A DNA stretch of 32,000 nucleotides, from assembly GCF_047555085.1 (NCBI RefSeq), contig NZ_CP180230.1:240001-272000 (forward strand), read 5' to 3'. Positions 1 to 32,000 of the stretch are shown here, piece after piece. Numbering within the stretch: position 1 is the first letter of the stretch; the number at the start of each line of letters is the position of its first letter. The translations under genes were made by a program, and so were the position numbers. This stretch comes from Candidatus Saccharimonadota bacterium. GTDB lineage: Archaea > Nanohalarchaeota > Nanosalinia > Nanosalinales > Nanosalinaceae. The notes under the pieces are model-generated. The model made no database searches and was not told where the DNA came from. It saw nothing but the letters and a program-made list of their open reading frames with translations.

Positions 1-418
1 CTGATGATGCTGTAAATGCTATCAGGAGTGCTGTGGCTACTGTGAAAAGGCCTGCGACAAATTTTCCGTTGATTATCTCGTCCCGGTATACAGGATATGA
101 TAAAAGCAACTCGATTGTTCCCTCCTCTCGTTCCCGTGAGATAGAATCATAGCTCAACAGAAGAGCAAGTATTGCCGCTGCAAGAGGCAAGTTAAGGCCT
201 ACAAGAGGCCCGAATACATCGATTAGAGATGGCTTTTCCGGTACAGGCCCGTAACTGTTTCCGCCTTCAAAGTTTTCCATCTGCTGATTGTACTCGTCGA
301 CACCCATGTACACCGATCCCATGGAAAGTGCAAGGAAAAGGCCCAGAATCAACAGAAACTTTTTGCTTGAAAAACTATCCTCGATCTGTTTCCGGCCTAT
401 ATCCCACATCGAGCCCAT
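1..418 (-). CDS. ABC-2 type transporter permease, N-terminal part (continues beyond window edge)
   Basis: Hand translation of the minus strand from ATG 418-416, directly after the ATPase stop, stays open to position 1. It reads MGSMWDIGRKQIEDSFSSKKFLLILGLFLALSMGSVY...LLLSYDSISREREEGTIELLLSYPVYRDEIINGKF. There is an N-terminal TM helix, and the ExxGT(I/L)ELLLS-P motif is typical of ABC-2/NosY-like permeases. It lies downstream of the ATPase in the same operon. Confidence 0.6.
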   Translation of the reverse strand, partial: MGSMWDIGRKQIEDSFSSKKFLLILGLFLALSMGSVYMGVDEYNQQMENFEGGNSYGPVPEKPSLIDVFGPLVGLNLPLAAAILALLLSYDSISREREEGTIELLLSYPVYRDEIINGKFVAGLFTVATALLIAFTASS

Positions 419-1327
419 TTATCCGCCACCTGTCAACTTCAGATAAGTTGTCTCCAGAGTTTCCTCCTCCATCTCGAAAGCTTCAACATCAATATCTTCC
501 TCCATCAATCGATCGAAGAGCTTACTTCGGATATCATCCTCCGCCAGGATCTCCAATTCTTTCTTCCCGGCCTCGTACTCCACGTCCATCTCATCAAGAA
601 TTTTCTCCGAGGCCTCCCGATCTTCAGTCTTCAAACGGATATAGGAGTCTGTATCTGTCTCACTGCTCAACTCGTGTCTCGTCCCACAGGCCTCGACTTT
701 TCCGTCACTGAGAATGGCAAATCTGTCGCATAAAGTATCAATTTCGGTGGTGATATGAGATGAAATTATGATGGTCTTGCCACGTTCTCTGTTAATCTTC
801 TTCACCAGATCCTTGAAGGCCTTTTTTCCCTGTGGATCAAGGCCTGTAGTCGGCTCATCGTAGATGATGATCTCCGGATCCTTGATCATCGACTGTGCGA
901 TCCCCAGACGCTTCTTCATCCCTGTGGAAAAATCTCCTACAGATCTATCCGCATCGTCCTCAAGGCCTACAAGATCGAGAAGATCATCCAGATCAGGATC
1001 CGTCCCGGCAAGCTCTGTAAAGAACTCAAGATTCTCCCGCGCACTCATCCCCTCGTAGAAGCTTATATCAGAGGGAAGATAGCCGATCTTCTCCTTTATC
1101 TCCTTCGACTGCGTATGCTCAGTCCCTTTGATCTTCACAGTGCCACTATCCTGCCTTAAAAGGCCTAGAACAGTCTGGAAAAGAGTAGTCTTCCCAACAC
1201 CGTTAGGCCCCAAGATGCCGAAGATCTCTCCTTCCTCTACAGAAAAATCTATACCTTTCAGTACTTCAAAATCTCCGTAGCTTTTCTCAACGCCTTCCAG
1301 TTCGATTATATCTGTCAAAAAATTCAC
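419..1327 (-). CDS. ABC transporter ATP-binding protein (ABC-2 exporter type)
   Basis: Walker A GPNGVGKTT, signature-like FSTGMKKRLGIAQ, Walker B IIIYDEPTTGLD, H-loop SSHI. The GTG start overlaps the upstream stop (GTGA). Confidence 0.9.
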   Translation of the reverse strand: MNFLTDIIELEGVEKSYGDFEVLKGIDFSVEEGEIFGILGPNGVGKTTLFQTVLGLLRQDSGTVKIKGTEHTQSKEIKEKIGYLPSDISFYEGMSARENLEFFTELAGTDPDLDDLLDLVGLEDDADRSVGDFSTGMKKRLGIAQSMIKDPEIIIYDEPTTGLDPQGKKAFKDLVKKINRERGKTIIISSHITTEIDTLCDRFAILSDGKVEACGTRHELSSETDTDSYIRLKTEDREASEKILDEMDVEYEAGKKELEILAEDDIRSKLFDRLMEEDIDVEAFEMEEETLETTYLKLTGGG

Positions 1328-2445
1328 CTTCTGCTGAACTTCCTGTAGACGAATATCAATGCTGCAAGACTCAAAGCCATCAAAACAAGGCCTACACTGC
1401 TCATCCCGCTCTCCTCTCTCACATTGATCCTTATCTCGGAAGGACTCTCTATAGAGGCCTTGTCTGAAGATGCAGAAATCTCTACAAAGTAGTCTCCTGG
1501 CGAGGCCTCAGCAGGTACGTCCAGAGTCAGCATGGATCTCTGACGCTCTCTTGTATCCAGCTCGCTGAATCCTTCAGGATTTAAATCGTATTCCCAGCTA
1601 TCCGGCGCAGTCACCTCTATCTCAACGTTTTCAAGGGCTGCACCGGTGCTATCATCCCTGTATCCGAATCCGGCGCTGTTCCTGACTGTTATAGGAATCT
1701 CCTTTGTCTCATCAGGATTTGACGCCATATAATTTTCTCTTATATTCAGAGACATCTCTCTTTCAACTTCTGCACCACGTATCTCCATCTGGAACTCTTC
1801 TGAAAGCTTTTCTCCGTTCTGAGCGATCAAACGGACTTTGTATGTTCCCAACTCTGCGTTTTCAGGGACTTCAAGATTTGCAGTAACGGATTCCTCTTCA
1901 CCTGCCTCCACGTAGACCTCTGTAACGTTGAAATCCTGAAAACTGAAGGAGGCCTCTACAGAGGCGTTAGTATCCACGGAAAGATTATAGGTTTGATTCA
2001 GAAATCCTGTATTCTCTATAGTGAAAGGTATGTCAGCGCTGTCGTCCTGTGAAACGATTATCTTGCTTGGAGCCGATGAATCGATCTCTCCAGAGGACAG
2101 GATCTCTTTATCAGCCATTATATCAAGATTCAGAAATCTTCCATCCCTGTCCCAGCCGGAAGAACCTATTCTGATGCTGAGATTCTCTGAAATATTCAGA
2201 GTTTCTCCTTCCCTCTCATAGATATCGTCGTTCTCCACCTGATCCATTATACGGAACGATGTGTCCATCCAGCGGCCTATCTCAAGTACGTCGTCGCCGT
2301 TCTGACTGCTGTACTCTACAATGTAGTCGCCGATTTCCTCCTGTTCGCCAAAATACATTTTCTCATCGTGACTGTAGCTCTGGCCTAGTACAAGGCCTGA
2401 AAACAGTAGAAAAAACACCGAAAAAACCAGCATCTTTCGTCTCAT
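1324..2445 (-). CDS. Secreted/anchored cell-surface protein with two CARDB/NEW3-like beta-sandwich repeats
   Basis: N-terminal signal-like MRRKMLVFSVFFLLFSGLVLG and a C-terminal TM anchor plus basic tail (LVLMALSLAALIFVYRKFSRR). Several N-x-S/T sequons are present. It is the first gene of the ABC-2 operon, an arrangement common for archaeal COG1470-like proteins. Confidence 0.7.
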   Translation of the reverse strand: MRRKMLVFSVFFLLFSGLVLGQSYSHDEKMYFGEQEEIGDYIVEYSSQNGDDVLEIGRWMDTSFRIMDQVENDDIYEREGETLNISENLSIRIGSSGWDRDGRFLNLDIMADKEILSSGEIDSSAPSKIIVSQDDSADIPFTIENTGFLNQTYNLSVDTNASVEASFSFQDFNVTEVYVEAGEEESVTANLEVPENAELGTYKVRLIAQNGEKLSEEFQMEIRGAEVEREMSLNIRENYMASNPDETKEIPITVRNSAGFGYRDDSTGAALENVEIEVTAPDSWEYDLNPEGFSELDTRERQRSMLTLDVPAEASPGDYFVEISASSDKASIESPSEIRINVREESGMSSVGLVLMALSLAALIFVYRKFSRR

Positions 2446-2487
2446 AACCTATAAGTTACCTGGCTTTACTTTTTAAATGCTTTAAAG

Positions 2488-2509
2488 CTGTTCGAGGCTT
2501 TTCGAACAG
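2488..2509. promoter_or_regulatory. Perfect 8-bp inverted repeat in a divergent promoter region
   Basis: ctgttcga-ggcttt-tcgaacag, just downstream of the TATA-like ttttaaat/tttaaag (2471-2487). It lies between divergent genes, so it is not a terminator. Confidence 0.3.
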
Positions 2510-2560: not shown

Positions 2561-3025
2561 GTGGCAGGGGAAGATGTTTTCAAGATTAACTCTCCAACTG
2601 AAAGTATGGATCTGGATGAGATCATCGAGGAAAGTCTCAGGGAACGAACCAGGGAAGCTATAGAAACAGATGTACTTGAAAAAACAGAGCCTGGGATGAA
2701 ACACAAGAAGAACGCACAGGAGGAGAAGATTGAGAGACAGGCCTTCTCCAAGACAGGGGCCTCGATGACACCGCAGCAGGTAGAATACCTTGTACAGGAG
2801 AAAACAGGTATGGACAACGAGGAACTGGAAAAATTCCTGGCAGGAGAACACGAGGCCTCGGAGACGCTCAAGAACTGGAACGATTACTCCCGGACAGAAG
2901 AGAAATTCATGATACAGAACTACCAGACATCCAGTCCTGAAGAGATCGCTGAAAGACTTGACAGGCCTCAGGAAGAAGTTGAAGTCAAGCTGAAGCTTAT
3001 GGGATTTAACCCGGAGAAGATGTAG
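2561..3025 (+). CDS. Hypothetical acidic protein with a possible C-terminal helix-turn-helix-like segment
   Basis: 154-aa ORF with a GTG start. The composition is acidic like the neighbouring genes. The stop TAG overlaps the GTG of the next gene (TAGTG). The C-terminal segment WNDYSRTEEKFMIQNYQTSSPEEIAERLDRPQEEVEVKLKLMGF looks HTH/Myb-like, which is weak evidence. Confidence 0.55.
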   Translation: MAGEDVFKINSPTESMDLDEIIEESLRERTREAIETDVLEKTEPGMKHKKNAQEEKIERQAFSKTGASMTPQQVEYLVQEKTGMDNEELEKFLAGEHEASETLKNWNDYSRTEEKFMIQNYQTSSPEEIAERLDRPQEEVEVKLKLMGFNPEKM

Positions 3026-3792
3026 TGGAGGCCTCTGAGATGGATAGAGAAGAGATTAGAGATAAGGCGCTGAAACAGACGCGTGAAAAACTGCGCAAGC
3101 CTGTGGAGAAAGATCTTTTTCTGGTGAAAACTGTACAGCAACTCGACAAGTTGAACAAGAACTTCCGTGAAGACGTTGAAAACTTCCGTGATCTTTACTC
3201 ACAGCACTTCCCGGAGCTTGTATCAGAACTGACCGATGACGAAAGATTTGTGGATATGCTGGATCGCTTTGGAGTACAGAGATCAGAACTTGAGCCGTTT
3301 CAGGAGCTAGCAGAAAGTTCTACAGGCTCTGCGATAAACGATGAAGAAAAACAGATAATTGAAGATATCCTCTCCCAGCTAGTTGAGACAAAAGAGACTA
3401 CAGAACGACTGGAGGCCTATGTTGAGAAAGAGGCGAAAAAAGAGTTCCAGAATCTTTCAGGCCTTCTGAATCCGCTTCTGGCGACAAGATTAGTCGCTCT
3501 GGCAGGAGGCCTGGACGAACTGGCGAAGAAGCCGGCCTCTACAGTCCAGATGCTTGGAGCAGAGAAAGCACTTTTCCGTTACCTTCACGGAGAAGGCACG
3601 CCACCGAAACACGGAGTTCTATTCAATCATCCGTTCGTGAAAAATCTTCCTGAAGAAGAAAGAGGGAAAATGGCACGTTTCCTCGCCAACAAAGCAGTTA
3701 TGGCAGCCAGGATTGATAACTACGGCGATGAGGATAAATCCGAAGGCCTCAGAGAAGAGGCCCGTGAAAGATACGAGGAACTGAAGAACTAG
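3025..3792 (+). CDS. nop5: Nop5 (Nop56/58) box C/D sRNP protein, coiled-coil plus Nop domain only
   Basis: DLYSQHFPEL (coiled-coil start) and a Nop domain: LGAEKALFRYLHGEGTPPKHGVLFNHPFV...ARFLANKAVMAARIDNY. It is only 255 aa. The first residues align to the linker before the coiled coil, so the N-terminal fibrillarin-binding domain is absent. Confidence 0.85.
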   Translation: MEASEMDREEIRDKALKQTREKLRKPVEKDLFLVKTVQQLDKLNKNFREDVENFRDLYSQHFPELVSELTDDERFVDMLDRFGVQRSELEPFQELAESSTGSAINDEEKQIIEDILSQLVETKETTERLEAYVEKEAKKEFQNLSGLLNPLLATRLVALAGGLDELAKKPASTVQMLGAEKALFRYLHGEGTPPKHGVLFNHPFVKNLPEEERGKMARFLANKAVMAARIDNYGDEDKSEGLREEARERYEELKN

Positions 3793-5788: not shown

Positions 5789-5816
5789 TTTAGGTAGGCC
5801 TAAAATTTCTTTAAGG
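5789..5816 (-). promoter_or_regulatory. sufC promoter module: TATA-like element plus 16-nt dyad shared with sufB
   Basis: The plus strand reads tttaggtaggcctaaa-atttctttaagg. The 16-mer is identical to 16768-16783 and is followed by tctttaa in both copies. On the sense strand it reads TTAAAGA...TTTAGGCCTACCTAAA. Confidence 0.4.
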
Positions 5817-7796: not shown

Positions 7797-8967
7797 AGAT
7801 TTCCGAGGCCTCTCGGACTGATTCCAGGAATTTTTCCACGTCTTCTTCAGTATTGTAGATGTAAGGTGATGCCCGGGTCGCACCGTTTACATCAAGTTCC
7901 ACCATCTGCGGCTGAGCACAGTGATGACCGGCTCTCACAGCAACTCCATGCTGGTTCAAAACCTCTGCAACATCGTGCGGATGCGCGTACTCGCACGTGA
8001 AAGAAACAAGATTCGCTCCCTCCGGAGAAATCACGTCGATACCTTCGATCTCCTCAAGGCCTCCAATCATTTTCTCTGCAAGCTTCTTGCTGTGAGCTGA
8101 AACATTCTCCATACCTATATCTTCAAGATACTCGACAGCAGCTGCAAGGCCTACAGCACCTGCAACATTCGGTGTTCCGGCCTCGAACCTTTCGGGAGCA
8201 TCTGCATACTTTACTTCGTCGTGCTCAACAGAGTTGATCATTCCTCCGCCAACCTGATAAGGCCTCATATCCTGCAATAGCTCTTTTTTACCGTAGAGCA
8301 CTCCTGTTCCTGAAGGCCCCAGCATCTTGTGGCCTGAGAAAGCCACGAAATCCGCATCGATATCTTTGACATCAAGAGGCCTGTGAGGAGCACTCTGGGC
8401 GGCATCAAGCACAACTAGAGCATCGTTGTCGTGAGCTATCTCAATAATTTCTTCTACGGGATTCTCAGCTCCAAAAACATTTGATATATGAGATATAGCT
8501 ACAAGGCCTGTATCTTCATCGATCTTATCTTTTGCGGATTTGATAGAGATCTTCCCGTTCTCTGTCCCAAGGTACTCTATATTTTTATCTTCTTCATCAG
8601 CTTTTCTGCGCCATGGCAGCTGTTCCGAGTGATGAGCCATCTTTGAAAGCACGATACCGCCTTCAAAATCAAGAGATGAGGCCAGAAGATTTTCTGCCTC
8701 AGTAGTATTCCTTACGAAAATTACTTCGTCGCTGTCTGCATTGATGAATCCTGCTACCTTACTCCGGGCATCCTTGTAGGCCTGCGTGGCATCGTTCGCC
8801 AGTTCGTAAAGGCCTCTACCAATATTTGAATTATTTTCTCTGTAGAAATTCTCTACGGCATCTATAACTGATTCTGGTTTCTGTGAAGTGGCTGCGTTGT
8901 CGAGATACGCCAGTTCAGGCCTTTCATCGAATATCGGGAAGTCTTCCCTGATTTTTTCTGGTTTCAT
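7783..8967 (-). CDS. sufS: Cysteine desulfurase SufS (class V aminotransferase)
   Basis: PLP-lysine motif FSGHKMLGPSGTGVLYG, active-site RAGHHCAQP, N-terminal YLDNAATSQKP. Confidence 0.92.
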   Translation of the reverse strand: MKPEKIREDFPIFDERPELAYLDNAATSQKPESVIDAVENFYRENNSNIGRGLYELANDATQAYKDARSKVAGFINADSDEVIFVRNTTEAENLLASSLDFEGGIVLSKMAHHSEQLPWRRKADEEDKNIEYLGTENGKISIKSAKDKIDEDTGLVAISHISNVFGAENPVEEIIEIAHDNDALVVLDAAQSAPHRPLDVKDIDADFVAFSGHKMLGPSGTGVLYGKKELLQDMRPYQVGGGMINSVEHDEVKYADAPERFEAGTPNVAGAVGLAAAVEYLEDIGMENVSAHSKKLAEKMIGGLEEIEGIDVISPEGANLVSFTCEYAHPHDVAEVLNQHGVAVRAGHHCAQPQMVELDVNGATRASPYIYNTEEDVEKFLESVREASEIFNAT

Positions 8968-21358: not shown

Positions 21359-21413
21359 CAAGCCCTACCCATATGTAATACTGAAAGTCCTCTACATATA
21401 AATCTTTTCTAGA

Positions 21414-21426
21414 TCTGTATTACAGA
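21414..21426. promoter_or_regulatory. Palindromic site 1 upstream of the RHH gene
   Basis: tctgta-t-tacaga, immediately upstream (in the sense direction) of the TATA-like tttatat. Confidence 0.4.
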
Positions 21427-21489
21427 AAAACTTTTTCTGGGGAATACTATGCAAATTTTCCTGTAAAATCTGTGTAAAGGCCTCTATAT

Positions 21490-21504
21490 TTCTGTATTAC
21501 AGAA
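21490..21504. promoter_or_regulatory. Palindromic site 2 upstream of the RHH gene
   Basis: ttctgta-t-tacagaa has perfect 7-bp arms and the same core as site 1. A third core copy, tgtaatac, lies at 21374-21381 between the TATA element and the ATG. Confidence 0.4.
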
Positions 21505-21509
21505 ATTTT

Positions 21510-22691: not shown

Positions 22692-22772
22692 GTATCTTAA
22701 CAGGAACGTGAATAATTAGAACCTTCCGATACAGGAAAACTGATTCAAGAGTAACTTTCCAATAAAAATTCA

Positions 22773-23243: not shown

Positions 23244-23244
23244 G

Positions 23245-25002
23245 TCATCCCAGCTTCCAGTGAGGATTCTTCCTGTCCTTGACTTCAACTATCTCATCAA
23301 GAACAGATTTCTCCCCGCTACTCAATAGATCTTCAAGCTCCTGAAGCACTCTGTAATCATCTGAGTTGATGTCTGTTACCAGTATATCGCCTTCATCAAC
23401 GTTTCTTCCGACTGTGGCTCCTGAGATCGAGACAGCTACTTCGTCACCTTTAGAGGCCTGATCTATACTTTCGTTCTGCTCCTGAATACTTTTCACAGAG
23501 CCGATAACGTCGCCTTCAGGAGTCATAAGCTTTGAACCTGATGTAAGTACTCCGTTAACTATCTCACATCCTACTACAGCAGGAGTGGAGGATCTGAAAA
23601 CGTGATCTGGCATCAGACGTATTCTTGCAGGCCTTGAAACACTTTCCAGCTTCTCCTTTCTCTCTTTTTCCTTTAAATCCTGTTTCCACTCTGTATAGCC
23701 GTCAAGTATTTCGTAAATAACTTTGCTCTGGAAGACTTTTACCTTGTCTTTTTCCAGGGCTTCCTGAGCCTGATCTGTGACGCCTACGTTGAAGGCGAAG
23801 ATCGCACGGTGCTCTGACTCCTCGTCCTCGGCTTTAACTATGTCGCTCTTGTTGACAGGCCCGACTTCAGCCTTCTGCACCTGTATATCCTTGTCCTCGA
23901 TCTCTGTCATCAAGGCCTCAAGGGAGCCGAGGGAATCAGCTTTAACGACTATTCCGTGTGTAGAAGTTTCATAGGACAGTGATTCAAGTTCGTCCTCCAC
24001 TTCCTCTCTTGCCTCCTCGATTTTTCCTTCAGAGGCCGTTCTTATCGGTGCGCCTGAGATTATTCCTTCAAAATCTTTTGCAGAGATCTTCACTCCTGCT
24101 GCTGGCTCAACTTTGTCTGTCTCCGAGTAATGTTTATCCTCACGAATCTCTGTAAGAGGCCTTGGTTCAAGAAGCGCTCTTATCTCTGTTTCTTTCACTC
24201 CATCGGATGTACCGTAAACTACGGTGTCATCGCTTTCCATAATTCCGTCGTAGAGTATAACGTCTGCGGTCGTCCCCATTCCTTTTTCTTTGGAGACTTC
24301 AAGTACTGTTCCTTTTCCTATTCCTTCATGTATATCAAGTTCGTCGCTGAGATAGTTCTGACTGAGTCCTGTAACTACCATAAGTAGTTCAGGGATTCCT
24401 ACGTGTGTTTCAGCTGATATAGGTACTATGGCAACTTTCTCCTGGAAGTTGTCGACACGGTCGAACCTGTCTGATACGATTCCGTGATCGTTCAGCTCTC
24501 CCATTATCTCGTAGATCCTCTGATCAACCTGCTGCTGTACGTGGTCCTGCTGCTCTCTCATACCTTCTGTGAAAAGATCGCTGTCAGTGTTCCAGCCGTT
24601 GACGGTATCTACCTTGTTTAATGCCACAATGAAAGGTGTTCCGGAGTTCTTCAGTATGTCGATAGCCTCTTCAGTTTGAGGCTGAATTCCCTCCTGTATA
24701 TCTATCATCAGTATACCGATGTCGCTGATTGAGCCACCTCTCTTCCTGAGAGATGAGAACGCAGCATGTCCTGGAGTATCAATAAACATAATTCCCGGAA
24801 TCTCTATCTCCGTATCCAGTTGATTCAGAAGGCCTCCACAGACATCCTCCAGTGTTTCAAGAGGAACTTCTGTGGCTCCGATCATCTGTGTTATCTGACC
24901 TGCCTCACCCTCCGTTATACGTGACTCTCTTATGGCGTCAAGAAAACTTGTTTTACCTGCATTTACGTGGCCGAGAACAGAGAGAATAGGTTGACGAGGC
25001 AT
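23245..25002 (-). CDS. infB: Translation initiation factor aIF5B (IF2-type GTPase)
   Basis: G1 GHVNAGKTS, G3 DTPGHAAF, G4 NKVD. The domain order and length (585 aa) are typical of aIF5B. There is no intein. Confidence 0.93.
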   Translation of the reverse strand: MPRQPILSVLGHVNAGKTSFLDAIRESRITEGEAGQITQMIGATEVPLETLEDVCGGLLNQLDTEIEIPGIMFIDTPGHAAFSSLRKRGGSISDIGILMIDIQEGIQPQTEEAIDILKNSGTPFIVALNKVDTVNGWNTDSDLFTEGMREQQDHVQQQVDQRIYEIMGELNDHGIVSDRFDRVDNFQEKVAIVPISAETHVGIPELLMVVTGLSQNYLSDELDIHEGIGKGTVLEVSKEKGMGTTADVILYDGIMESDDTVVYGTSDGVKETEIRALLEPRPLTEIREDKHYSETDKVEPAAGVKISAKDFEGIISGAPIRTASEGKIEEAREEVEDELESLSYETSTHGIVVKADSLGSLEALMTEIEDKDIQVQKAEVGPVNKSDIVKAEDEESEHRAIFAFNVGVTDQAQEALEKDKVKVFQSKVIYEILDGYTEWKQDLKEKERKEKLESVSRPARIRLMPDHVFRSSTPAVVGCEIVNGVLTSGSKLMTPEGDVIGSVKSIQEQNESIDQASKGDEVAVSISGATVGRNVDEGDILVTDINSDDYRVLQELEDLLSSGEKSVLDEIVEVKDRKNPHWKLG

Positions 25003-25148
25003 TAAACATCACTAAGAACACCATCTAACTTTAGCTTTAAATACCTGCCCAGCAGAGAACAACAGAAAAAATTCGATGCAAGGCCTCTGGAGAAAATTTA
25101 ACGAGTTAGAGAAAAATAGATAAGAAGAATATGTTGGTGGTCTCGATT

Positions 25149-25304
25149 CTACTCCTCTCGAGACGCGTACTTGTGATTGCGGTCGTTCTTCCAGTTCTTG
25201 AAATGCTTGCTGGAAGCAAAGTAGAGCCTTTCTCCACTGTTCTTTACGTACATAATGCCTTCAGAAGGCCTGATTTCTTCGCCGCTGTATTCGCATTCTA
25301 CCAT
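25149..25304 (-). CDS. rpl24e: Ribosomal protein eL24 (L24e), 51 aa (not in ORF track)
   Basis: Hand translation gives MVECEYSGEEIRPSEGIMYVKNSGERLYFASSKHFKNWKNDRNHKYASREE. This matches the eL24 pattern C.(Y/F).G..I.PG.G.M(Y/F)V..DG....F.SSKC..N. It sits in the conserved L7Ae-S28e-L24e order. Confidence 0.8.
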   Translation of the reverse strand: MVECEYSGEEIRPSEGIMYVKNSGERLYFASSKHFKNWKNDRNHKYASREE

Positions 25305-25311
25305 TTAGAGA

Positions 25312-25488
25312 TCACCCTTCCATCTCCGTTTCCTTGATGTGGACTACGTCGTCTTCACGGATAGGGCCTCTTGCGTTTCTTACAAGAATCTTTCCTTCTT
25401 CACTTCCCTCGATAATCCTGCATCTGATCTTCCTGACCGTTCTGTGGCCCTGTTCTCCGATGACCTCGATTACTTTAGCTGCTACCAT
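25312..25488 (-). CDS. rps28e: Ribosomal protein eS28 (S28e), 58 aa (not in ORF track)
   Basis: Hand translation gives MVAAKVIEVIGEQGHRTVRKIRCRIIEGSEEGKILVRNARGPIREDDVVHIKETEMEG. This matches the eS28 pattern AEVIEIIGRTG...V.C.ILEG...GRIL.RNV.GPVR.GD...L.ETERE. Confidence 0.85.
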   Translation of the reverse strand: MVAAKVIEVIGEQGHRTVRKIRCRIIEGSEEGKILVRNARGPIREDDVVHIKETEMEG

Positions 25489-25531
25489 CTGATTTTTCAG
25501 TCCTCTTTTGTACCTTTATAGGAAAGGATTT

Positions 25532-25909
25532 TTACTCCTCTTCCTCTGCTTCGAGCAGTTCCTGTGCTTTTCTCTGAACGTCTTCGATCTCGTCTCCTGC
25601 ATTACCTGTAGAAGTTACTGCAACTGAAGCAGCCTGAACGTTGACGCCTGCTGCAATTCCCAGCTCTTCCTTGTCAGGGACGAAAGTGAAAGGAACATCC
25701 TTCTCCTCGGCAAGTGCCGGGATGTGCATAACGATCTCCTCAGGATCAACGTTGCCGGCTACGACAACGAGATCTGCTTCGTTCCTCTCGATAGTCTTCG
25801 TTACTTCGTTTGTACCGGTGACAATCTTTCCGGTATCTCTAGCTTTTTCTACTGCGTTGTAAGTATCGTCGGCGAGCTGATCGCCTGGTTCAAATTTCTG
25901 GTAAGCCAT
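25532..25909 (-). CDS. rpl7ae: Ribosomal protein L7Ae (K-turn binding; also a box C/D and H/ACA sRNP component)
   Basis: GTNEVTKTIERNEADLVVVAGNVDPEEIVMHIPALAEEKDVPFTFVPDKEELG. Confidence 0.92.
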   Translation of the reverse strand: MAYQKFEPGDQLADDTYNAVEKARDTGKIVTGTNEVTKTIERNEADLVVVAGNVDPEEIVMHIPALAEEKDVPFTFVPDKEELGIAAGVNVQAASVAVTSTGNAGDEIEDVQRKAQELLEAEEEE

Positions 25910-25925
25910 TTTTTGATAACACCTT

Positions 25926-25946
25926 TCACGCCCTTGATCATCAAGG
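25926..25946 (-). promoter_or_regulatory. Palindrome with an embedded UGAUGA in the L7Ae 5' leader (weak candidate L7Ae-binding element)
   Basis: The sense RNA reads AGCCUUGAUGAUCAAGGGCGUGAAAGGUG, about 15-45 nt upstream of the AUG. It contains a C-box-like UGAUGA followed 8 nt later by GUGA. The DNA palindrome ccttgat-c-atcaagg lies at 25932-25946. Confidence 0.25.
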
Positions 25947-26015
25947 CTATGTAAAGAATACAGTCGACTGGAACTTTTTTATACCCATTTAATCAAGTCA
26001 AAATCCGTTGTATCG

Positions 26016-26246
26016 CTACACGCTTTCAGGATCCCAGTCACCAAGCTTCCGATTCTCAATCAGATCCAAGTCCTCCTCAAGACCACGGATAACCATGTTC
26101 AACTGATGCTCATTGGAGTCGGAATCCTCAACAGGGAAATCATTCATCTCATCCACAAGCTCATCCCTGAGAAAACGCATTACCTCTATACTAGAGGCCT
26201 CTTCACGAAAATTTTCCAGTGCTTCCTTAACTTCTTCACGACTCAT
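26016..26246 (-). CDS. Hypothetical small acidic protein
   Basis: 76-aa ORF with an ATG start, on the same strand as and upstream of the L7Ae operon. It is acidic and looks helical. Confidence 0.5.
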   Translation of the reverse strand: MSREEVKEALENFREEASSIEVMRFLRDELVDEMNDFPVEDSDSNEHQLNMVIRGLEEDLDLIENRKLGDWDPESV

Positions 26247-26272
26247 AAGATACCCTTACGCGAGAAAAGTTT

Positions 26273-26989
26273 TTACTTCTCCGCCGTCTTGATAGATTTC
26301 TCGATCTCTCCACGCCTCTCACTGTAGGCCTCTATAAGCTCACGTACATCCCGCGAATTTTCCTTCTCACGGTGCACAGTCTTCCTCATATCATCAAGAT
26401 TGCCCTGAAGCTCCTGAGCCAGATATCCCATCTCCTCAATCATCTCCCGCACATCACGGAACTGCTCCTCACGCAGGAACAGCGGCTCGCTGCTTTCAGG
26501 CCTTGTATCCTTTGGCTCGGAACGTATAACTTCTTTCCGTGAACTGTCCGAGTCCTGAGAACTCTCATTCTGGATAGGACTGTCAGCTAGCGGAGAGCTG
26601 GAGGCCTGAGGACTGCTCTGCGTCTGTCCCTGACTCTGCTGATTCCGAGCCGGTTGCTGCGGCTGAGAAGCCGGAGATGGCTCCTGTGCCTGAGAGGCCT
26701 GGCCCTGACTTGTACTGTTCATGTTCTGTCTGGACTGAGGCTGCTGCATCTGGCTTTGAGAACTCTGCGTGTTATCCTGTTGATTACTGTTTTCCTGTAC
26801 GAACTGCGGTGTCTGTCCCTGACTCTGGTTGTTATTATCGTTATTTTCTTCAGAACTTCCGAAATCGTCAAATCCATCGAATCCCTGATCCTGCTGAGTC
26901 TGACGCTTCTTGTCTCCCTGAATCATTCCCTTGATTTCCTGCATATTTTCCTCAAGCTCCTCCTTGTCGTCAGATCCAAAATTGAACAT
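26273..26989 (-). CDS. Hypothetical protein with a long Q/N/S-rich low-complexity core and a C-terminal coiled-coil-like domain
   Basis: 238-aa ORF. Residues about 30-150 are dominated by Q, S, N and P (for example NNDNNNQSQGQTPQFVQENSNQQDNTQSSQSQMQQPQSRQNMNSTSQGQASQAQ). The C-terminal 80 aa are charged and helical. Confidence 0.6.
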   Translation of the reverse strand: MFNFGSDDKEELEENMQEIKGMIQGDKKRQTQQDQGFDGFDDFGSSEENNDNNNQSQGQTPQFVQENSNQQDNTQSSQSQMQQPQSRQNMNSTSQGQASQAQEPSPASQPQQPARNQQSQGQTQSSPQASSSPLADSPIQNESSQDSDSSRKEVIRSEPKDTRPESSEPLFLREEQFRDVREMIEEMGYLAQELQGNLDDMRKTVHREKENSRDVRELIEAYSERRGEIEKSIKTAEK

Positions 26990-27118
26990 AGCAGCTCTAA
27001 CAGAAAATGGGTGCTAGACCGGTTTAAATATTACGCCCTGTTACAGGAGAAATCACTGAAAATTTCGTAGAAAAATCAAGTAGATGTTGGATTAGAAAGT
27101 GGGAAAGAAAAAAGTTTT

Positions 27119-27742
27119 CTAGGCCTCTGCGGCCTCTCCGTCTTCTTCCTCGGAGTAACTTGAGACAAAGTCCTCAAGCTTCGCATCCAGCTTCTCTCCG
27201 TTAGCCTCCTTGATCTGCTGGGCAAGAAGCCAGAATACCATGCCGACAGCGTTCTCTCCCTTGTTGTTAGCAGGGATAACGTAGTCAACATCGTCAAGAC
27301 TGTTCTCAGAGTCAGCGATAGCCACTACAGGGATATCAACATCTGAGGCCTCTGTGATTGCCTGTCCATCCTCTTCAGGATCTGTAACAAGTACGATCTC
27401 CGGCTCCTTGAAGTTGTCGGAGCGTGGATTTGTCAGTGTTCCAGGCATGAAGCGTCCGTTAACGCTGTCTGTGCCAAGAACCTCTGAAAGAGTCTTGATA
27501 GGCTGGTAAACTTCTTCCTTCCTTCCTACTACAAGTATTTCTTCAGGGCTGTAATCCGCAAGGATCTCTGCCACTTTTCTTATCTGTTCATCAGTTTTAT
27601 TCAGGTCAAGAATCGCAAGACCGTTTTTCTTGACGTGGAAAATATAATCATCCATGTCAACGTGCTGTGACCGGGTTCCAATATGGACTCCGTTCTTCAA
27701 GTATTCTTCACGTTCAACCAGTAGTTCTTCTTCATCGCCCAT
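27119..27742 (-). CDS. rps2: Ribosomal protein uS2 (S2)
   Basis: LLVEREEYLKNGVHIGTRSQHVDMDDYIFHVKKNGLAILDLNKTDEQIR. The ATG at 27742 matches archaeal uS2 N-termini. The alternative start at 27790 would make an ATGA overlap with the upstream small ORF. Confidence 0.9.
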   Translation of the reverse strand: MGDEEELLVEREEYLKNGVHIGTRSQHVDMDDYIFHVKKNGLAILDLNKTDEQIRKVAEILADYSPEEILVVGRKEEVYQPIKTLSEVLGTDSVNGRFMPGTLTNPRSDNFKEPEIVLVTDPEEDGQAITEASDVDIPVVAIADSENSLDDVDYVIPANNKGENAVGMVFWLLAQQIKEANGEKLDAKLEDFVSSYSEEEDGEAAEA

Positions 27743-27786
27743 ACCGAGATTGTTGGAGGCAAATATTAAATAAGGCCCCCGACCCC

Positions 27787-28011
27787 TCATCCACTTTGAT
27801 CGATATTCTCAAGATCCAAGTCCAGTATATCACGGAAACGGAAATGTATCCAGAGGCCTGCCGCTACACCTGTCAGAAGAGGGACACCGAACTCAATCAA
27901 ACGGCCAATCTCTGTATCCGGAGCGAAAGTATTCGCCACAAGGCCTGAAATAAGAACGAGGAAAAATGCTGCAGCAGTATACTTCAGTACTTCAAAGTTC
28001 TGTTCTTTCAA
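27787..28011 (-). CDS. Possible small 2-TM membrane protein between eno and rps2
   Basis: 74-aa ORF with two hydrophobic helices and an acidic tail. The only available start is a TTG overlapping the enolase stop (TTGA), and there is no internal Met. Confidence 0.4.
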   Translation of the reverse strand: MKEQNFEVLKYTAAAFFLVLISGLVANTFAPDTEIGRLIEFGVPLLTGVAAGLWIHFRFRDILDLDLENIDQSG

Positions 28012-29129
28012 GGCCTGTACACCTCTCTATCCTCTGTTTCATCCCACAGTTTCAGCAGTCGATTCAGTTTTGCAATCCTGATATCTGCGATACCTGCCTT
28101 GATTACAGGACAGTTCCACTCCAGAGCCAGATCGCTGATCGTGCTGTCGCATGTCTCACCGCTCCGATGAGAGATAACAGGCGTATAATCCTCTTCCTCC
28201 GCCAGTTCAACAGCATCCTCCGTATCAGAAACAGTACCGATCTGATTCGGCTTGATGATAAGACTGTTACAAGCCCCGTGATCAACTCCTTCCTGAAGCC
28301 TGTCTCTGCTAGTCGTGAAAAGATCATCTCCACAGATCATCACATCTGGATTCTGGCTTGTCAACTTGGCATGCATACGGAAATCCTCCTGATCGAAAGG
28401 ATCCTCCACATAAACCAGATCATATGCATCAATAAGATGCTGTATAAACTTCAACTGCTCATTAGCATCGAACTCCTGACGCAGAGAACCAAGACTGTAC
28501 TTCCCCTCGCTGTAGAACTCTGAGGCAGCAACATCTAGGCCTATACGAGCACCATGTCTATCAGCAATCTTTTTCAAGGCCTTCAAAGTCTGCTCATCAT
28601 CCATACTCGTGATCAAAGCACCTTCATCATTCATTCCCTGTATACGATGTGCATAATCCTCTTTCAGATCCTGATAGATTTTCCTGTTGATTTCAATAGC
28701 TTCGGGAAAAGTTTCGGCCTCAACAGGCAGGACAAGGAACTCCTGGATGCTCGTGTTTCCTCCGTGCTCTCCTCCGCCGATAACATTACTCAATGGAAGA
28801 GGAAACTCTTTCCCGTGATCAAATCCAGAGGCCTGTTTGAAAGCAAGACTGGCCGCAATACCTACAGCACCGATACGTGAGAAATCATCGCTTCCATCTA
28901 TATCACGGAGACGGCGATCAAACTCTCTTTGATTCAAAACCTCGCCTTCAAGCTGCTGAAGCTCCTCCTCCAGGCCTTCAAGATCCTCCGGCACGAAACA
29001 TTTCGCCTCATGAGTTCCCGTTGAGGCCCCTGAAGGAGCCTTCCCGCTGAAGCCGTTGATCTCCACCTCTACAGTGTAGTTAGTTCTTGAATCAAGTATC
29101 TTCCGCAGTTTAACAGAATCAATTTTCAT
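28008..29129 (-). CDS. eno: Enolase (phosphopyruvate hydratase), short form of 373 aa
   Basis: SGASTGTHEA, GDDLFTTS, IKPNQIGT, SHRSGET. Confidence 0.92.
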   Translation of the reverse strand: MKIDSVKLRKILDSRTNYTVEVEINGFSGKAPSGASTGTHEAKCFVPEDLEGLEEELQQLEGEVLNQREFDRRLRDIDGSDDFSRIGAVGIAASLAFKQASGFDHGKEFPLPLSNVIGGGEHGGNTSIQEFLVLPVEAETFPEAIEINRKIYQDLKEDYAHRIQGMNDEGALITSMDDEQTLKALKKIADRHGARIGLDVAASEFYSEGKYSLGSLRQEFDANEQLKFIQHLIDAYDLVYVEDPFDQEDFRMHAKLTSQNPDVMICGDDLFTTSRDRLQEGVDHGACNSLIIKPNQIGTVSDTEDAVELAEEEDYTPVISHRSGETCDSTISDLALEWNCPVIKAGIADIRIAKLNRLLKLWDETEDREVYRP

Positions 29130-29204
29130 GTAGAAAAAATTGTGGAGACTTGGATAAAAAGGCCTTATGGAAAAGTAGAGAAAAAATATGTGGAGAGAAA
29201 AATT

Positions 29205-29366
29205 TTATCTTACTGTGATCGGGAGCTTGCCTTCTCTAAGCTCTCTCTTGCTGATCTCCAGAGGTGCATCTCCTTCCTCGGTGTCGACGAATGCCGGAGC
29301 ACCCTGAGCAAGCTGGAGGCTTCGAGCTCCAAGAATCCGTGCTCTCTCGTATCGCGTGTAACTCAT
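29205..29366 (-). CDS. rpoK: DNA-directed RNA polymerase subunit K (Rpo6), 53 aa (not in ORF track)
   Basis: Hand translation gives MSYTRYERARILGARSLQLAQGAPAFVDTEEGDAPLEISKRELREGKLPITVR. This matches the RpoK/Rpb6 core TRYE.ARI.G.RALQ...GA......P..IA..EL..G..P..V.R. It sits in the conserved rpoK-eno-rps2 order. Confidence 0.85.
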   Translation of the reverse strand: MSYTRYERARILGARSLQLAQGAPAFVDTEEGDAPLEISKRELREGKLPITVR

Positions 29367-29391
29367 AACTACTCACTTCACAGGAAGTTTT

Positions 29392-30162
29392 TTATCCTAT
29401 GTACCCGAGATCAGTGTTTCCGGTGTTCTGATCCTGTTCCGGGCTTTCAGACTGCTTCAGATTTTGCACCTTCTTCAGGATATCCTGTGACTCGTTCACT
29501 TTTTCATCAAGCTCCGAGTAATCAACGTCGACATCGATGATCTGCTCGACAACTTTCAGAACTTCTTCAGTAGACTTCGGATCGCTCAACAGGAAGCCAG
29601 GTGTCTCACCGAGAACGCAGACGCCTTCAAATCCTCTTTCCTCTCCGATGCCCAGTAGAAGGCCTGAAACTCCGACGATCTGGCCTACATCGTGATCGAA
29701 AGTGACTCCCATATCCTCGTATCTTTCCTGATCTTCCTTGGAAGTCGTCACTCCGAATACTTCAGGATCCTCAACGACATCTCCCTGCCCGTATCCGCCG
29801 ACTGTAACGATTTGAGAGGCCTCTACATCTTCCACGATCTCCATAACTTTCTCAGCTACTTCGTGGTGGCCTTCTGGCGTTGAGGCCTGTGCATTTCCTT
29901 CCAGAAGCACGAGATCTTTCTTTCCGTCACGCTTCAACTGGTAAATAGTATTCTTGATTGTTTCAACGGTTTTATCGTCAGTCACCATAGCGAAAGGAGG
30001 GAAGTGATGCGAGTATACCTCTCCAACTTTCTCGGATTCTGTATGATCAGCTATGTAACTGACTACATTCCTCCCTATGTGGCCTATACCTGCAAGGCCC
30101 TCTATAAATACCGGATTTTCGACATCAAAATCTTTCTCCATCTCTATTCTTGTAGTCTTCAT
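29392..30162 (-). CDS. PAC2-family (COG1938, proteasome assembly chaperone-like) protein
   Basis: N-terminal VFIEGLAGIGHIGRNVVSYIADH resembles the PAC2 signature. Its position after nop10 matches a conserved archaeal neighbourhood (from memory). Confidence 0.55.
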   Translation of the reverse strand: MKTTRIEMEKDFDVENPVFIEGLAGIGHIGRNVVSYIADHTESEKVGEVYSHHFPPFAMVTDDKTVETIKNTIYQLKRDGKKDLVLLEGNAQASTPEGHHEVAEKVMEIVEDVEASQIVTVGGYGQGDVVEDPEVFGVTTSKEDQERYEDMGVTFDHDVGQIVGVSGLLLGIGEERGFEGVCVLGETPGFLLSDPKSTEEVLKVVEQIIDVDVDYSELDEKVNESQDILKKVQNLKQSESPEQDQNTGNTDLGYIG

Positions 30163-30165
30163 AAT

Positions 30166-30312
30166 TTATTCAACCTCTTTTTTCGTTTTGCGTCTGTACT
30201 TGCCATGCCTGTCCGGGAACGAAAACTTTGGAGGCCTGGCCTTGACAGTTTTCACGCCGTCAAGTTCATCTTTCAACGTGTACCTATTAGTCTCTGGACA
30301 CTTTTTAATCAC
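30166..30312 (-). CDS. nop10: H/ACA RNP protein Nop10, 48 aa (not in ORF track)
   Basis: Hand translation from GTG 30312 (SD GGTGA 9 nt upstream) gives MIKKCPETNRYTLKDELDGVKTVKARPPKFSFPDRHGKYRRKTKKEVE. This matches the Nop10 core YTL....G..T....PP(K/R)FSP.D..GKYRR. It lies directly downstream of aIF2-alpha, as in other archaea. Confidence 0.8.
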   Translation of the reverse strand: MIKKCPETNRYTLKDELDGVKTVKARPPKFSFPDRHGKYRRKTKKEVE

Positions 30313-30347
30313 GGTAACTTTTTCACCTGAGTTAAAGAAAAAATTTT

Positions 30348-31103
30348 TCAGGCTCTTGAGAACTCGAAGTTCCCGTCAAGCTCGTCAACTTTTTCCCGAA
30401 TATTTCTTACAGAGTTATCGATACGTTTCTTCGCAAGCTCCTGTGTACGGCCCCAGGCAGTGATAGAGTACTCTGGAGCGGAGATGTACTTCACTTCAAC
30501 GCCGTCATTTATATCGGAGAGAACTTCCTTGATACGTTCAACTCCGTCTCCCTGAGGGAAAGAAAGCTCCAGTGTACCTTCCAGTTTCTCCTGCTTCAGA
30601 TCGATGTTGTCTCTTGCAACGTCCTGAATAGCCGCTACAACATCTTCATCGAACAGATTCTGAAGCTTCTCTTCCTCGGCCTCTGAAATCTCAAATCCGT
30701 AGAAAGAGCTTCCGAACTCTTCCTGCATCCTGAACCCGATATCTTCGTATACATCATCGACTTCACGATCCAGTTTCTCGGCAAGATCCTCGATAAAGCT
30801 TTCAGCCTTCTGCTCCTTCTTCCAGCGCTCCATCGTATCGCGCTTGTTATTATCATTTACACGCTTCAAAGACAGAGTAACAGTATCTCCCTCTGCGTCA
30901 ATAACCTGTGCAACATTCTTCTCACCCTCACTGAGTTCTTTAGTCATATCCTGAACCCAGGAACGTGAAACCTCGGAGATATGGATAAGGCCTTCAACGT
31001 CCTCGTACTCCTCAAGATCTGCATAAGCAGAGTTCTTGTCAACATCAGTAAGAGTTACAACAACAAAATCTCCTTCCTCAGGCCTATCCTTGTACCATCT
31101 CAT
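30348..31103 (-). CDS. eif2a: Translation initiation factor aIF2 alpha subunit
   Basis: N-terminal S1 domain PEEGDFVVVTLTDVDKNSAYADLEEYEDVEGLIHISEVSRSWVQDM. Its length (251 aa) and helical/alpha-beta C-terminal domains are typical. Confidence 0.9.
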   Translation of the reverse strand: MRWYKDRPEEGDFVVVTLTDVDKNSAYADLEEYEDVEGLIHISEVSRSWVQDMTKELSEGEKNVAQVIDAEGDTVTLSLKRVNDNNKRDTMERWKKEQKAESFIEDLAEKLDREVDDVYEDIGFRMQEEFGSSFYGFEISEAEEEKLQNLFDEDVVAAIQDVARDNIDLKQEKLEGTLELSFPQGDGVERIKEVLSDINDGVEVKYISAPEYSITAWGRTQELAKKRIDNSVRNIREKVDELDGNFEFSRA

Positions 31104-31180
31104 AAATACACAAAACGCAAGACAACTTTAAAAATAAACTGAAAAACATAAAGGCCTCTCCAACTAAAACTCAAGTACAG

Positions 31181-31822
31181 ATGACTTTAATCGGCTACTG
31201 GCCTCTCAACGAAAACTCCGGAAAGGCCTATGATCACTCCGGCAACGATAATCACGGCACAGTGAATGGAGGGGTTACACAGGGAACAACAGGCCTTCTG
31301 GGAGATAATGCCTATAATTTCAACGGGTCAGATAGCTACGTTGACTACGGATTTTCAAAGAACTTCAGCAAGGTATCAATGTTTTGCTGGATATACATTA
31401 CAGATATCTCCAATTACGATTCACTGATCAGCAAGTACGGAGGAGAAAACTCTGTAGGCGGCAGATCTTACGAACTACTTCAAAACGATCAAGGCGGAAT
31501 AAGATTTCACACCTCCGATGATCGCTTCGACTCAGACTCTCAGATCCAGGAATCCCAGTGGCATCACGTAGGCGCCACATGGGACGGAAATCAAGCCAGA
31601 ATTTTCATAGACGGAAAACAGGATAACTCCAGCCAGAACCTGACACATAACACAAACAATATTACCTGGCAAACAGGAAGAAGCCCCAGATCAACTAACT
31701 ACACACAAGGAAAAATCTCCGAAGTCCGTATCTACAATAGGCCTATCACAGAACGTGAAGTCCAGTACCTCTATCAAGTTGGGAGTAGAGGCCTTCAGAC
31801 AACTTCCAAGAAAACTTCCTGA
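31181..31822 (+). CDS. LamG/concanavalin-A-like lectin domain protein
   Basis: LIGYWPLNENSGKAYDHSGNDNHGTVNGG...NFNGSDSYVDYG...WHHVGATWDGNQARIFIDGKQ...GKISEVRIYNRPITEREVQYLY matches the Laminin_G_3 pattern. There is no obvious signal peptide. Confidence 0.7.
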   Translation: MTLIGYWPLNENSGKAYDHSGNDNHGTVNGGVTQGTTGLLGDNAYNFNGSDSYVDYGFSKNFSKVSMFCWIYITDISNYDSLISKYGGENSVGGRSYELLQNDQGGIRFHTSDDRFDSDSQIQESQWHHVGATWDGNQARIFIDGKQDNSSQNLTHNTNNITWQTGRSPRSTNYTQGKISEVRIYNRPITEREVQYLYQVGSRGLQTTSKKTS

Positions 31823-31847
31823 GATAAGAAAAGGGAGTAGAGAAAAT

Positions 31848-32000
31848 TTATTCTACTTCGAGTTCTTCTACTACTTCTGCATTCAAGTCTGCTTTTCCTC
31901 CTGTAGGATGCGCGAGAACTTCACTGCAGACAAGGCATTGTACTTCTTCGGAAGGCCTTGAGAAGATTACTTGCTGATTTCCACATTCGCTGCATTCTGC
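31848..32000 (-). CDS. rps27e: Ribosomal protein eS27 (S27e), C-terminal part (start beyond window edge)
   Basis: Hand translation to the window edge gives ...AECSECGNQQVIFSRPSEEVQCLVCSEVLAHPTGGKADLNAEVVEELEVE. It has the C-x2-C...C-x2-C zinc ribbon and the GGKA motif of eS27. Confidence 0.85.
   Translation of the reverse strand, partial: AECSECGNQQVIFSRPSEEVQCLVCSEVLAHPTGGKADLNAEVVEELEVE

Follow-up and report, generated by a model that had tools for sequence, protein, structure and literature searches.

AGGCCT, a HIP-like iterated palindrome at exceptional density in one clade of Nanohaloarchaeota

Why should one six-letter palindrome recur on average every 225 bp through the genes and spacers of an archaeal chromosome? 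The question is raised by AGGCCT in a stretch of 32,000 bp (contig NZ_CP180230.1, positions 240,001 to 272,000, hereafter referred to as the window), in which exact matching finds 142 copies of this hexamer. The reason why genomes become saturated with a single short palindrome has been debated for the three decades during which the highly iterated palindrome HIP1 of cyanobacteria has been known, with proposals that still range from selection on function through biased repair to the uptake of DNA. The nearest relatives of the window are Nanohaloarchaeota, its aIF5B sharing 81% identity with that of the metagenome-assembled genome (MAG) NHA29 and 77% with that of Candidatus Nanosalina J07AB43, and gene calling gave 35 genes, occupying 84% of its length.

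The abundance of AGGCCT greatly exceeds what the composition of the window predicts. An order-0 model expects 6.5 copies and an order-1 Markov model 7.7, corresponding to an 18-22-fold excess, and dinucleotide-preserving shuffles contain 7.2 ± 2.7 copies, with a maximum of 14. AGGCCT is by a wide margin the top hexamer of the window, the next palindromic one, GATATC, reaching 26 copies, and it accounts for 142 of the 240 GGCC tetramers (59%). An earlier note on this DNA, made by reading its letters, had announced 142 copies, about 6 expected by chance from a guessed base composition, and some 60% of the GGCC tetramers placed between A and T. Its count proves exact, its composition close to the true G+C content of 45.9%, and its two other figures in line with those given here. 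Four positions that it quoted as examples (48, 195, 610 and 3029) are correct and most of its other coordinates fit, a few being off by 1-9 bases (3467 for 3459, 8991 for 8982, 21167 for 21163).

The same note had advised scoring the hexamer against a maximal-order Markov model. An order-2 model whose background excludes the motif expects 10.3 copies against the 142 observed. The ratio of observed to expected copies (O/E) is 2.0 at order 3 and 1.06 at the maximal order. We rejected the maximal-order model as a test because the pentamer counts are mostly made of the motif itself (142 of 179.5 AGGCC pentamers), the model being trained on the very signal that it judges. All that can be read from its O/E of 1.06 is that the A and the T occur next to the GGCC core near-independently and that the pentamers consist of the motif. 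A rule abandoning the enrichment when O/E falls within 2-fold, as put forward in the note, is ill-posed at high orders and would wrongly discard a real finding.

The AGGCCT signal acts at the DNA level and is neither a codon-usage effect, nor a peptide motif, nor a repeat family. Inside genes, 117 sites are distributed over codon phases 0, 1 and 2 (22, 43 and 52 sites) on both strands and in many different peptides, and the 25 others are intergenic, the density being 4.3/kb in genes and 5.0/kb in spacers. When synonymous codons are permuted within each gene, with a codon usage that is itself already inflated by the motif, 20.1 ± 4.0 sites are obtained (maximum 33 in 1000 shuffles) instead of 117, and synonymous resampling with a motif-free codon usage expects 11.8. 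The DNA-level drive that had been deduced beforehand from phases, strands and spacers is thereby upheld, as are the peptides which illustrated it (RP at 2963, MRPY in SufS at 8260, MEAS at 3029, EAY at 3413, GL at 3459, 3507 and 3744), and the reshuffling control suggested at that time falls far below the observation. Around the sites, the flanks show a weak R at -1 and a weak Y at +1 and otherwise no consensus. Their heterogeneity led us to reject a longer repeat family, and a dispersed repeat resembling repetitive extragenic palindromes or miniature inverted-repeat transposable elements was equally rejected, the sole longer recurrent context being an operator-like 16-mer near suf genes, present in two copies.

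The enrichment might also be put down to amino-acid composition and codon choice, to a motif shared by peptides, to dispersed or mobile repeats, or to faulty assembly, and the acidic, Glu/Ala/Gly-rich proteome does give an about 2-fold AGGCCT excess in unenriched nanohaloarchaea. These explanations are refuted by the synonymous resampling, of which three kinds reject codon usage and peptide motifs, by spacers as rich in sites as genes, by the use of all phases in many peptides, by copies devoid of flanking similarity and by the presence of the trait in four independent assemblies (NCBI, JGI, ENA), and we give them practically no credence.

The extent to which codon choice yields to the hexamer can be measured from the amino-acid contexts able to encode it, 115 of 152 of which carry the site in the window genes. 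Arg-Pro is written AGG CCT in 22 of 22 cases, where codon usage (AGG representing 18% of the Arg codons and CCT 45% of the Pro codons) predicts approximately 5-8%, and neither AGA, CGN, CCA, CCG nor CCC is ever used at this dipeptide. In phase 1, the contexts formed by Lys, Gln or Glu, then Ala, then a codon starting with T are realised in 41 of 61 cases, and in phase 2 the x-Gly-Leu contexts in 52 of 69.

This hyper-abundance is specific to one clade of Nanohaloarchaeota, represented by four genomes: the window (4.4 AGGCCT/kb, G+C 45.9%), NHA29 (labelled L001; 4.0/kb, 44.7%), a JGI population (L143, the same as L134; 2.5/kb, 41.9%) and an ENA contig (L148; 2.4/kb, 40.7%), the NreA of the other members being 92-94% identical to that of the window. 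The excess over the order-0 expectation is 16-21-fold in L001 and L143, and L148 has 51 sites where an order-1 model expects 3.6, approximately 14-fold. Synonymous-codon shuffles of two of these other clade genomes expect 7.9 and 7.1 sites where 48 and 41 are observed. The sister group (L145 and L147, NreA 78-79%) has 0.5 sites/kb, this group and all the other nanohaloarchaeal loci compared lying between 0 and 0.6/kb, and no other hyper-abundant palindrome was found in these unenriched loci. Bins of the enriched clade are NHA29 (JALDAN01), ENA ERZ28435192 and JGI Ga0209917/Ga0209965, while Nanosalina J07AB43 and the ENA bins ERZ28435205 and ERZ23491536 belong to the unenriched relatives. Pooling the data (24,953 codons for the clade, 42,985 codons for 11 outgroup loci), the site is carried by 241 of 356 compatible contexts in the clade (~70%) and by 36 of 368 in the outgroup, and Arg-Pro is encoded by it in 58 of 61 cases (95%) against 4 of 52 in the relatives. 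The clade is deeply diverged, with a DNA identity of 73-84% and an identity at four-fold degenerate sites of 0.35-0.45, against 0.30-0.35 with the outgroups. Extrapolating from 2.4-4.4 per kb, thousands of independent copies would be present in each genome.

Codon alignments of three clade genomes contain 49 positions with a site in at least one of them, 11 being occupied in three, 12 in two and 26 in one, which agrees with the independent origin of sites that the earlier note had proposed to look for among orthologues. The orthologous outgroup hexamers are AGGCCT in 12 of 236 cases, and usually stand one to three substitutions away from it (AGGACT, AGGCAT, AAACCT, CGTCCA). Of the 60 possible sites at which the three clade genomes agree in amino acids, 48 are present. 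In pairwise comparisons with unchanged amino acids, sites are retained in 65-88% of the cases, compared with an identity of 27-33% for control hexamers, and 0-11% of the window-clade sites are matched in outgroups. The two closest genomes (83% identity) have 29 shared and 25 unshared sites, their control hexamer identity being 0.37. A persistent force thus acts in every lineage of the clade, both keeping the sites and making new ones.

The same force fixes conservative amino-acid changes, essentially from Lys-Pro or Gln-Pro to Arg-Pro. The alignments show KP→RP 8 times and QP→RP 3 times, together with GI→GL and others. The compatible peptides are correspondingly commoner in the clade than in its relatives: RP reaches 2.44 against 1.21 per 1000 amino acids (P = 2×10⁻⁴), [EKQ]A[FSYCLW] 6.1 against 3.2 and xGL 5.7 against 4.1.

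When the two closest genomes are compared, C↔T changes within the GGCC core make up 8 of 14 single-base differences, a predominance that an ordinary mutation spectrum would give. It could also be claimed for a very-short-patch repair of the Vsr or Mig type, in which a C of AGGCCT or GGCC would be 5-methylated and a T:G-specific enzyme would restore C:G, thereby converting the TG neighbours and protecting the sites. Such systems have precedents in Dcm/Vsr and the CCWGG sites of Escherichia coli, and in the GGCC methylase and Mig.Mth T/G glycosylase of Methanobacterium, where biased repair linked to the methylation of a palindrome likewise shifts oligonucleotide frequencies, the second case having the GGCC core and the archaeal host in common with the present one. 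Moreover, variants at the inner positions are not raised (O/E 0.9), although 253 sites could decay into them. However, the depletion of deamination neighbours which the earlier note had predicted under a T:G repair drive is contradicted by the data, AGGTCT/AGACCT having an O/E of 1.18 both in the clade and in unenriched relatives, and AGGCTT/AAGCCT 0.73 and 0.77, respectively. The drive extends to every one of the six positions and is no weaker at the outer A and T, which C→T correction could not reach, and the synonymous alternatives eliminated at Arg-Pro include those which need transversions or A/G changes. The CCWGG excess of E. coli is small, the 20-fold effect seen here being an order of magnitude larger, and no mismatch endonuclease, glycosylase or Vsr-like protein is encoded in the window according to scans with Pfam, NCBIfam and PADLOC. 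On these grounds, a drive of the Vsr or Mig type appears improbable.

A compatible context is filled irrespective of how close another site lies (median 109 vs 102 bp, P = 0.77), showing that the force treats potential sites one by one. A benefit enjoyed per fragment or per domain, such as uptake, strand discrimination or the marking of a domain boundary, is argued against because the filling ignores local density and the contexts are near saturation, while such benefits should level off at about 1 site/kb.

The force also discriminates between partial sites. With the hexamers frozen, synonymous shuffles expect 25 ± 4 sites having only one of the pentamers AGGCC or GGCCT, where 68 are observed, and 28 bare GGCC with neither flank, where 17 are observed, a slight depletion. 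Gly-Pro is encoded with GGCC in 32 of 39 cases in the clade and 15 of 54 in the relatives, and Trp-Pro is TGG CCT in 3 of 3. The preference is therefore graded, the full site being strongly preferred to the pentamer with one complete half-site, itself preferred to bare GGCC. As a class, variants differing by one base at the outer A or T have an O/E of 1.8 (0.9 at the inner positions), an excess mostly due to the transition GGGCCT/AGGCCC (4.1), with 1.4 for CGGCCT/AGGCCG and 1.05 for TGGCCT/AGGCCA. Elhai found the deviations of HIP1 similarly biased toward its outer bases and attributed this to a methyltransferase that recognises the inner core (PMC4390886).

Restriction could be imagined to produce part of this pattern if unprotected GGCC were cut by an enzyme of the cell, its host or a virus, and if a StuI-type methylase protected AGGCCT only. 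The A_T context of 59% of the GGCC and the depletion of bare GGCC would fit, and two related brine contigs (L139, 7.8 kb, and L140, 11.2 kb; SL_4KL_010_BRINEDRAFT) contain no GGCC in 19 kb where 23 are expected, GGC and GCC being common in them. This complete avoidance is the classic signature from which a GGCC-cutting restriction enzyme would be predicted, the opposite of the window, and suggests that GGCC-directed enzymes are at work as a major evolutionary pressure in nanohaloarchaea. As an explanation of the window itself, however, restriction accounts for the A_T share only and not for the 20-fold absolute excess, new sites arise from non-GGCC ancestors in most orthologous comparisons, and the unprotected pentamer half-sites are enriched, so that we regard it as very improbable.

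The spacing of the sites is slightly more even than random, with a coefficient of variation of 0.84-0.88 in three genomes and 23 pooled spacings below 50 bp where 39.7 are expected. In the window, no spacing is shorter than 23 bp (10 expected) and six fall at 23-27 bp. A hard exclusion zone between sites was rejected, as L001 and L143 have spacings of 10-20 bp; the mild pooled deficit remains. The extended palindrome CAGGCCTG (window 14897-14904) is found at 1 of 142 sites where about 7 are expected, and at 6 of 304 sites in the four genomes (~15 expected), a weak effect; its depletion, only weakly reproduced in the relatives, was dropped as a signal.

The closest likeness is offered by HIP1 (GCGATCGC) and the alternate HIPs of cyanobacteria (Elhai 2015, PMC4390886; Xu, Lawrence & Durand 2018, PMC5861425), an analogy which the earlier note had rightly drawn. 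In both cases a short GC-rich palindrome, at least 15-fold over-represented, occurs as scattered single copies, whatever the reading frame and also in spacers, outside any longer repeat. Diverged genomes keep it at the same positions, the trait comes and goes among related lineages, and the one-base deviations are biased to the outermost bases. AGGCCT differs from HIP1 by its archaeal host, a member of the Nanohaloarchaeota within DPANN, by being a hexamer instead of the octamer GCGATCGC, by a density about 4 times higher (4.4/kb against ~1/kb), by the near-saturation of compatible codon contexts and by the measurable increase in compatible dipeptides. The HIP class is further defined by a methyltransferase, often an orphan, that is cognate to the motif or to its nested core and expected wherever the motif is abundant, and by a chromosomal periodicity of 10-90 kb, beyond the span of the 32-kb window, in which only a mild deficit of close pairs is seen. 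AGGCCT therefore looks like a HIP-like iterated palindrome, an archaeal counterpart of the cyanobacterial HIPs and not HIP1 itself. Literature searches found no publication linking AGGCCT abundance with nanohaloarchaea or describing a HIP-like element in archaea.

Other known systems are more distant. The DNA uptake sequences of Neisseria and the uptake signal sequences of Pasteurellaceae are non-palindromic motifs of 9-12 nt, present at about 1/kb and enriched as inverted pairs in terminators. They share with AGGCCT a short motif spread over genes and spacers, a molecular drive, an influence on codon and amino-acid choice and a lineage-specific distribution, and they are unlike it in that AGGCCT is a palindromic hexamer at 4.4/kb, without intergenic preference and without diminishing returns. 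The StuI-type restriction-modification systems, for example that of Alcanivorax borkumensis, have AGGCCT as recognition sequence, cytosine-methylated there, and 1674 AGGCCT sites are counted in the Alcanivorax genome (PMC12128166). An active cognate restriction system normally leads to site avoidance or to no excess, whereas the window shows a 20-fold excess. With a genome size of about 3.1 Mb, the density in Alcanivorax is approximately 0.5/kb.

As the force maintaining the sites, we tentatively prefer a bias of conversion or repair, linked to a protein which would recognise AGGCCT or its GGCC core. This protein would be specific to the clade and most plausibly a DNA methyltransferase of the StuI or GGCC type. 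It would bias mismatch correction or gene conversion toward the strand bearing the cognate sequence, so that losses would be reverted and chance gains fixed, copy by copy, with or without a cellular function of the copies. A methylation-coupled ratchet of this kind is Elhai's proposal for the HIP sequences of cyanobacteria (PMC4390886). We favour it because of the site-by-site action, the saturated contexts, the contrast between core and flanks, and the GGCC-directed enzymes that appear to shape other nanohaloarchaeal genomes. The components would have parallels: AGGCCT-specific cytosine methylation is documented in bacteria (PMC12128166), GGCC methylation systems are present in archaea (PMC10609329), and active Dcm-like methyltransferases occur in nanohaloarchaea, those of one nanohaloarchaeon having another specificity (PMC11001535).

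Several points weigh against a repair or conversion bias. No methyltransferase, nuclease or defence gene was detected among the window genes in the profile scans mentioned above, which leaves the 32-kb window devoid of the methyltransferase as well as of the mismatch endonuclease or glycosylase that the process could employ. Methylation of AGGCCT is only postulated for these archaea, which may lack methyl-directed mismatch repair altogether, and methyltransferases of strict specificity do not obviously account for a preference extending to five-sixths matches. The slightly even spacing is not predicted by a purely local process. Positional conservation was taken in HIP1 as evidence of selection on function and not of biased repair (Xu et al., PMC5861425); here it cannot separate the two because the compatible contexts are nearly saturated.

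The main rival is precisely selection, each copy being a functional site bound by an abundant clade-specific protein, with possible roles in nucleoid organisation, chromosome segregation, the marking of symbiont DNA as distinct from that of the host, or DNA uptake and recombination as proposed for HIP1. A positional conservation well above that of controls, a graded preference for partial sites resembling a binding-energy landscape, the scarcity of close pairs and a palindrome suited to a dimeric binder would all agree with it. The HIP1 literature leans toward selection, for a role in uptake or chromosome structure (PMC5861425; bioRxiv 10.64898/2026.06.24.733823), and nanohaloarchaea live attached to their hosts and exchange macromolecules with them (PMC11001535). 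Conversely, one site per fragment or per kb would suffice, whereas the sites reach 4.4/kb and near-saturation (58 of 61 Arg-Pro) with no diminishing returns as local density rises, and thousands of times over the gain from a single copy would need to exceed the effect of amino-acid changes. The sites show no preference for intergenic DNA or terminators, and neither a candidate protein binding them nor a system for competence is known. Selection on each copy is therefore possible but, in our view, rather unlikely.

Whether maintained by the conversion or repair bias that we prefer or by another force, AGGCCT adds to the HIP phenomenon a separate origin, in a different domain of life, with a different motif and a higher density. 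As close relatives with very small genomes either clearly have the trait or clearly lack it, the old HIP question becomes directly testable. It could quite possibly represent the first highly iterated palindrome outside cyanobacteria, in a DPANN clade where either a site-autonomous conversion drive or a dense methylated self-mark in the DNA traffic between symbiont and host would saturate the genome and remodel the proteome. If this is true, the recent origin of the trait in a tiny genome (~1 Mb) having unenriched sisters would allow the gene behind HIP-type phenomena to be found by presence/absence comparison. More generally, a force exerted on the DNA itself can all but cancel codon preference and make a dipeptide twice as frequent, which matters for codon-usage models, for the phylogenetics of these proteins and for binning, motif density being a sharp marker of the clade.

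The 16-nt near-palindrome that contains AGGCCT near suf genes (Table 1) has a counterpart in relatives. An element of the TTTAGGTAGGCCTAAA type lies upstream of sufB and sufD in L001 (~10690 and 13022), L143 (~15128 and 18119) and L136 (14041 and 18670), and outgroups retain TTTAGG-N4-CCTAAA upstream of suf genes with other central bases, the AGGCCT centre being confined to the enriched clade. The element probably serves as operator for a regulator of the suf genes, and its centre would have been converted, so that a near-match within a conserved non-coding element became AGGCCT in this clade only.

Two further observations concern the suf genes. The sufB and sufD genes of the otherwise unenriched MAG L002 (11500-13300) share 87% and 93% amino-acid identity with those of the window (14151-16761), and are nearer to them than are those of the window's own clade members; 5 of the 7 AGGCCT sites of L002 are located in this region, which suggests its transfer from an AGGCCT-rich lineage. 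L001 (12110-13080), L143 (16550-18180) and L148 (16587-18121) carry, inserted between sufB and sufD, a regulator of the Lrp/AsnC type together with one or two small genes, all absent from the window.

Table 1. Coordinates of AGGCCT sites and associated features in the window
Feature	Position	Strand	Remark
Dispersed single AGGCCT copies (142)	1..32000	.	exact match list; starts in the rows below
AGGCCT starts	48, 195, 610, 688, 817, 840, 963, 1161, 1388, 1455, 1503, 1950, 2393, 2739, 2853, 2963, 3029, 3413, 3459, 3507, 3744, 3877, 3974, 4062, 4086, 4368, 4495, 4838, 4977		
AGGCCT starts	5201, 5489, 5796, 6022, 6181, 6301, 6325, 6419, 6729, 6935, 6986, 7261, 7589, 7806, 8057, 8147, 8260, 8377, 8504, 8778, 8810, 8917, 8982, 9555, 9654, 9876		
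AGGCCT starts	10095, 10446, 10731, 10948, 11299, 11423, 11465, 11530, 11975, 12238, 12982, 13253, 13403, 13489, 13546, 13732, 13798, 13897, 14281, 14473, 14898		
AGGCCT starts	15023, 15133, 15193, 16158, 16576, 16599, 16676, 16775, 17164, 17293, 17406, 17775, 17926, 18157, 18184, 18614, 19041		
AGGCCT starts	20252, 20388, 20499, 20625, 20721, 20866, 20961, 21163, 21478, 21769, 22199, 22308, 22844, 22973, 22998, 23454, 23629, 23913, 24157, 24830		
AGGCCT starts	25081, 25266, 26195, 26326, 26498, 26602, 26695, 27121, 27346, 27854, 27941, 28011, 28537, 28577, 28829, 28972, 29160, 29660, 29817, 29883		
AGGCCT starts	30232, 30988, 31080, 31152, 31224, 31291, 31739, 31789, 31953		
Phase-0 site, AGG CCT = Arg-Pro, gene 2561-3025	2963..2968	+	RP 22/22 in window
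Phase-0 site in SufS gene 7783-8967 (minus), peptide MRPY	8260..8265	-	exact match
Phase-1 site, GAG GCC TCx = Glu-Ala-Ser, start of Nop5 gene (3025-3792)	3029..3034	+	41/61 contexts
Phase-2 site, xxA GGC CTx = x-Gly-Leu, Nop5	3459..3464	+	52/69 contexts
Intergenic AGGCCT inside 16-nt near-palindrome TTTAGGTAGGCCTAAA, 66 bp upstream of sufC	5789..5804	.	same 16-mer upstream of sufB
Second TTTAGGTAGGCCTAAA copy, 14 bp upstream of sufB (15361-16761, minus)	16768..16783	.	
Stretch alignable gene by gene with relatives	14151..31103	.	synteny and codon alignments; used for tracing site gain, loss and conservation
Genes in the alignable stretch	14151..31103	.	SufD, SufB, cytidylyltransferase, XPD helicase, DUF7544, NreA, aIF5B, L7Ae, S2, enolase, PAC2, aIF2-alpha

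Other palindromes of the window deviate from expectation as well. CTTAAG (0 vs 10.4 expected), GAATTC (4 vs 17) and CTAG (38 vs 129) are avoided, the avoidance of CTTAAG being common to many nanohaloarchaeal loci (L002, L005, L135, L136 and L138 among them), and GATATC is mildly enriched (26 vs 9.7 expected). IMG/VR was also scanned for three clustered AGGCCT sites in search of viruses or plasmids of the clade, and the matches listed comprise tandem repeats, such as L128, whose richness in AGGCCT is due to its repeat alone, and unrelated contigs. Among these listed matches, L014 (IMGVR_UViG_3300029432_000018, first 3.6 kb; G+C 36%) has 13 AGGCCT without a tandem repeat and is unrelated, and L088 (IMGVR_UViG_3300031867_007516), a bacterial plasmid- or phage-like contig, has 22 where 4.4 are expected, also without a tandem repeat.

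The genes of the window form an ordinary housekeeping set with very acidic products, including SufBCDS, NifU, Nop5, fibrillarin, XPD helicase, NreA, aIF5B, aIF2α, L7Ae, S2, enolase, PAC2, a MATE pump and regulators, and no RNA gene was detected among them. The open reading frames of fibrillarin, XPD and MATE (window 4022-4315, 20183-20374 and 11159-11290) begin well 5' of the conserved protein; their upstream parts are probably not translated, the true starts being internal ATGs.

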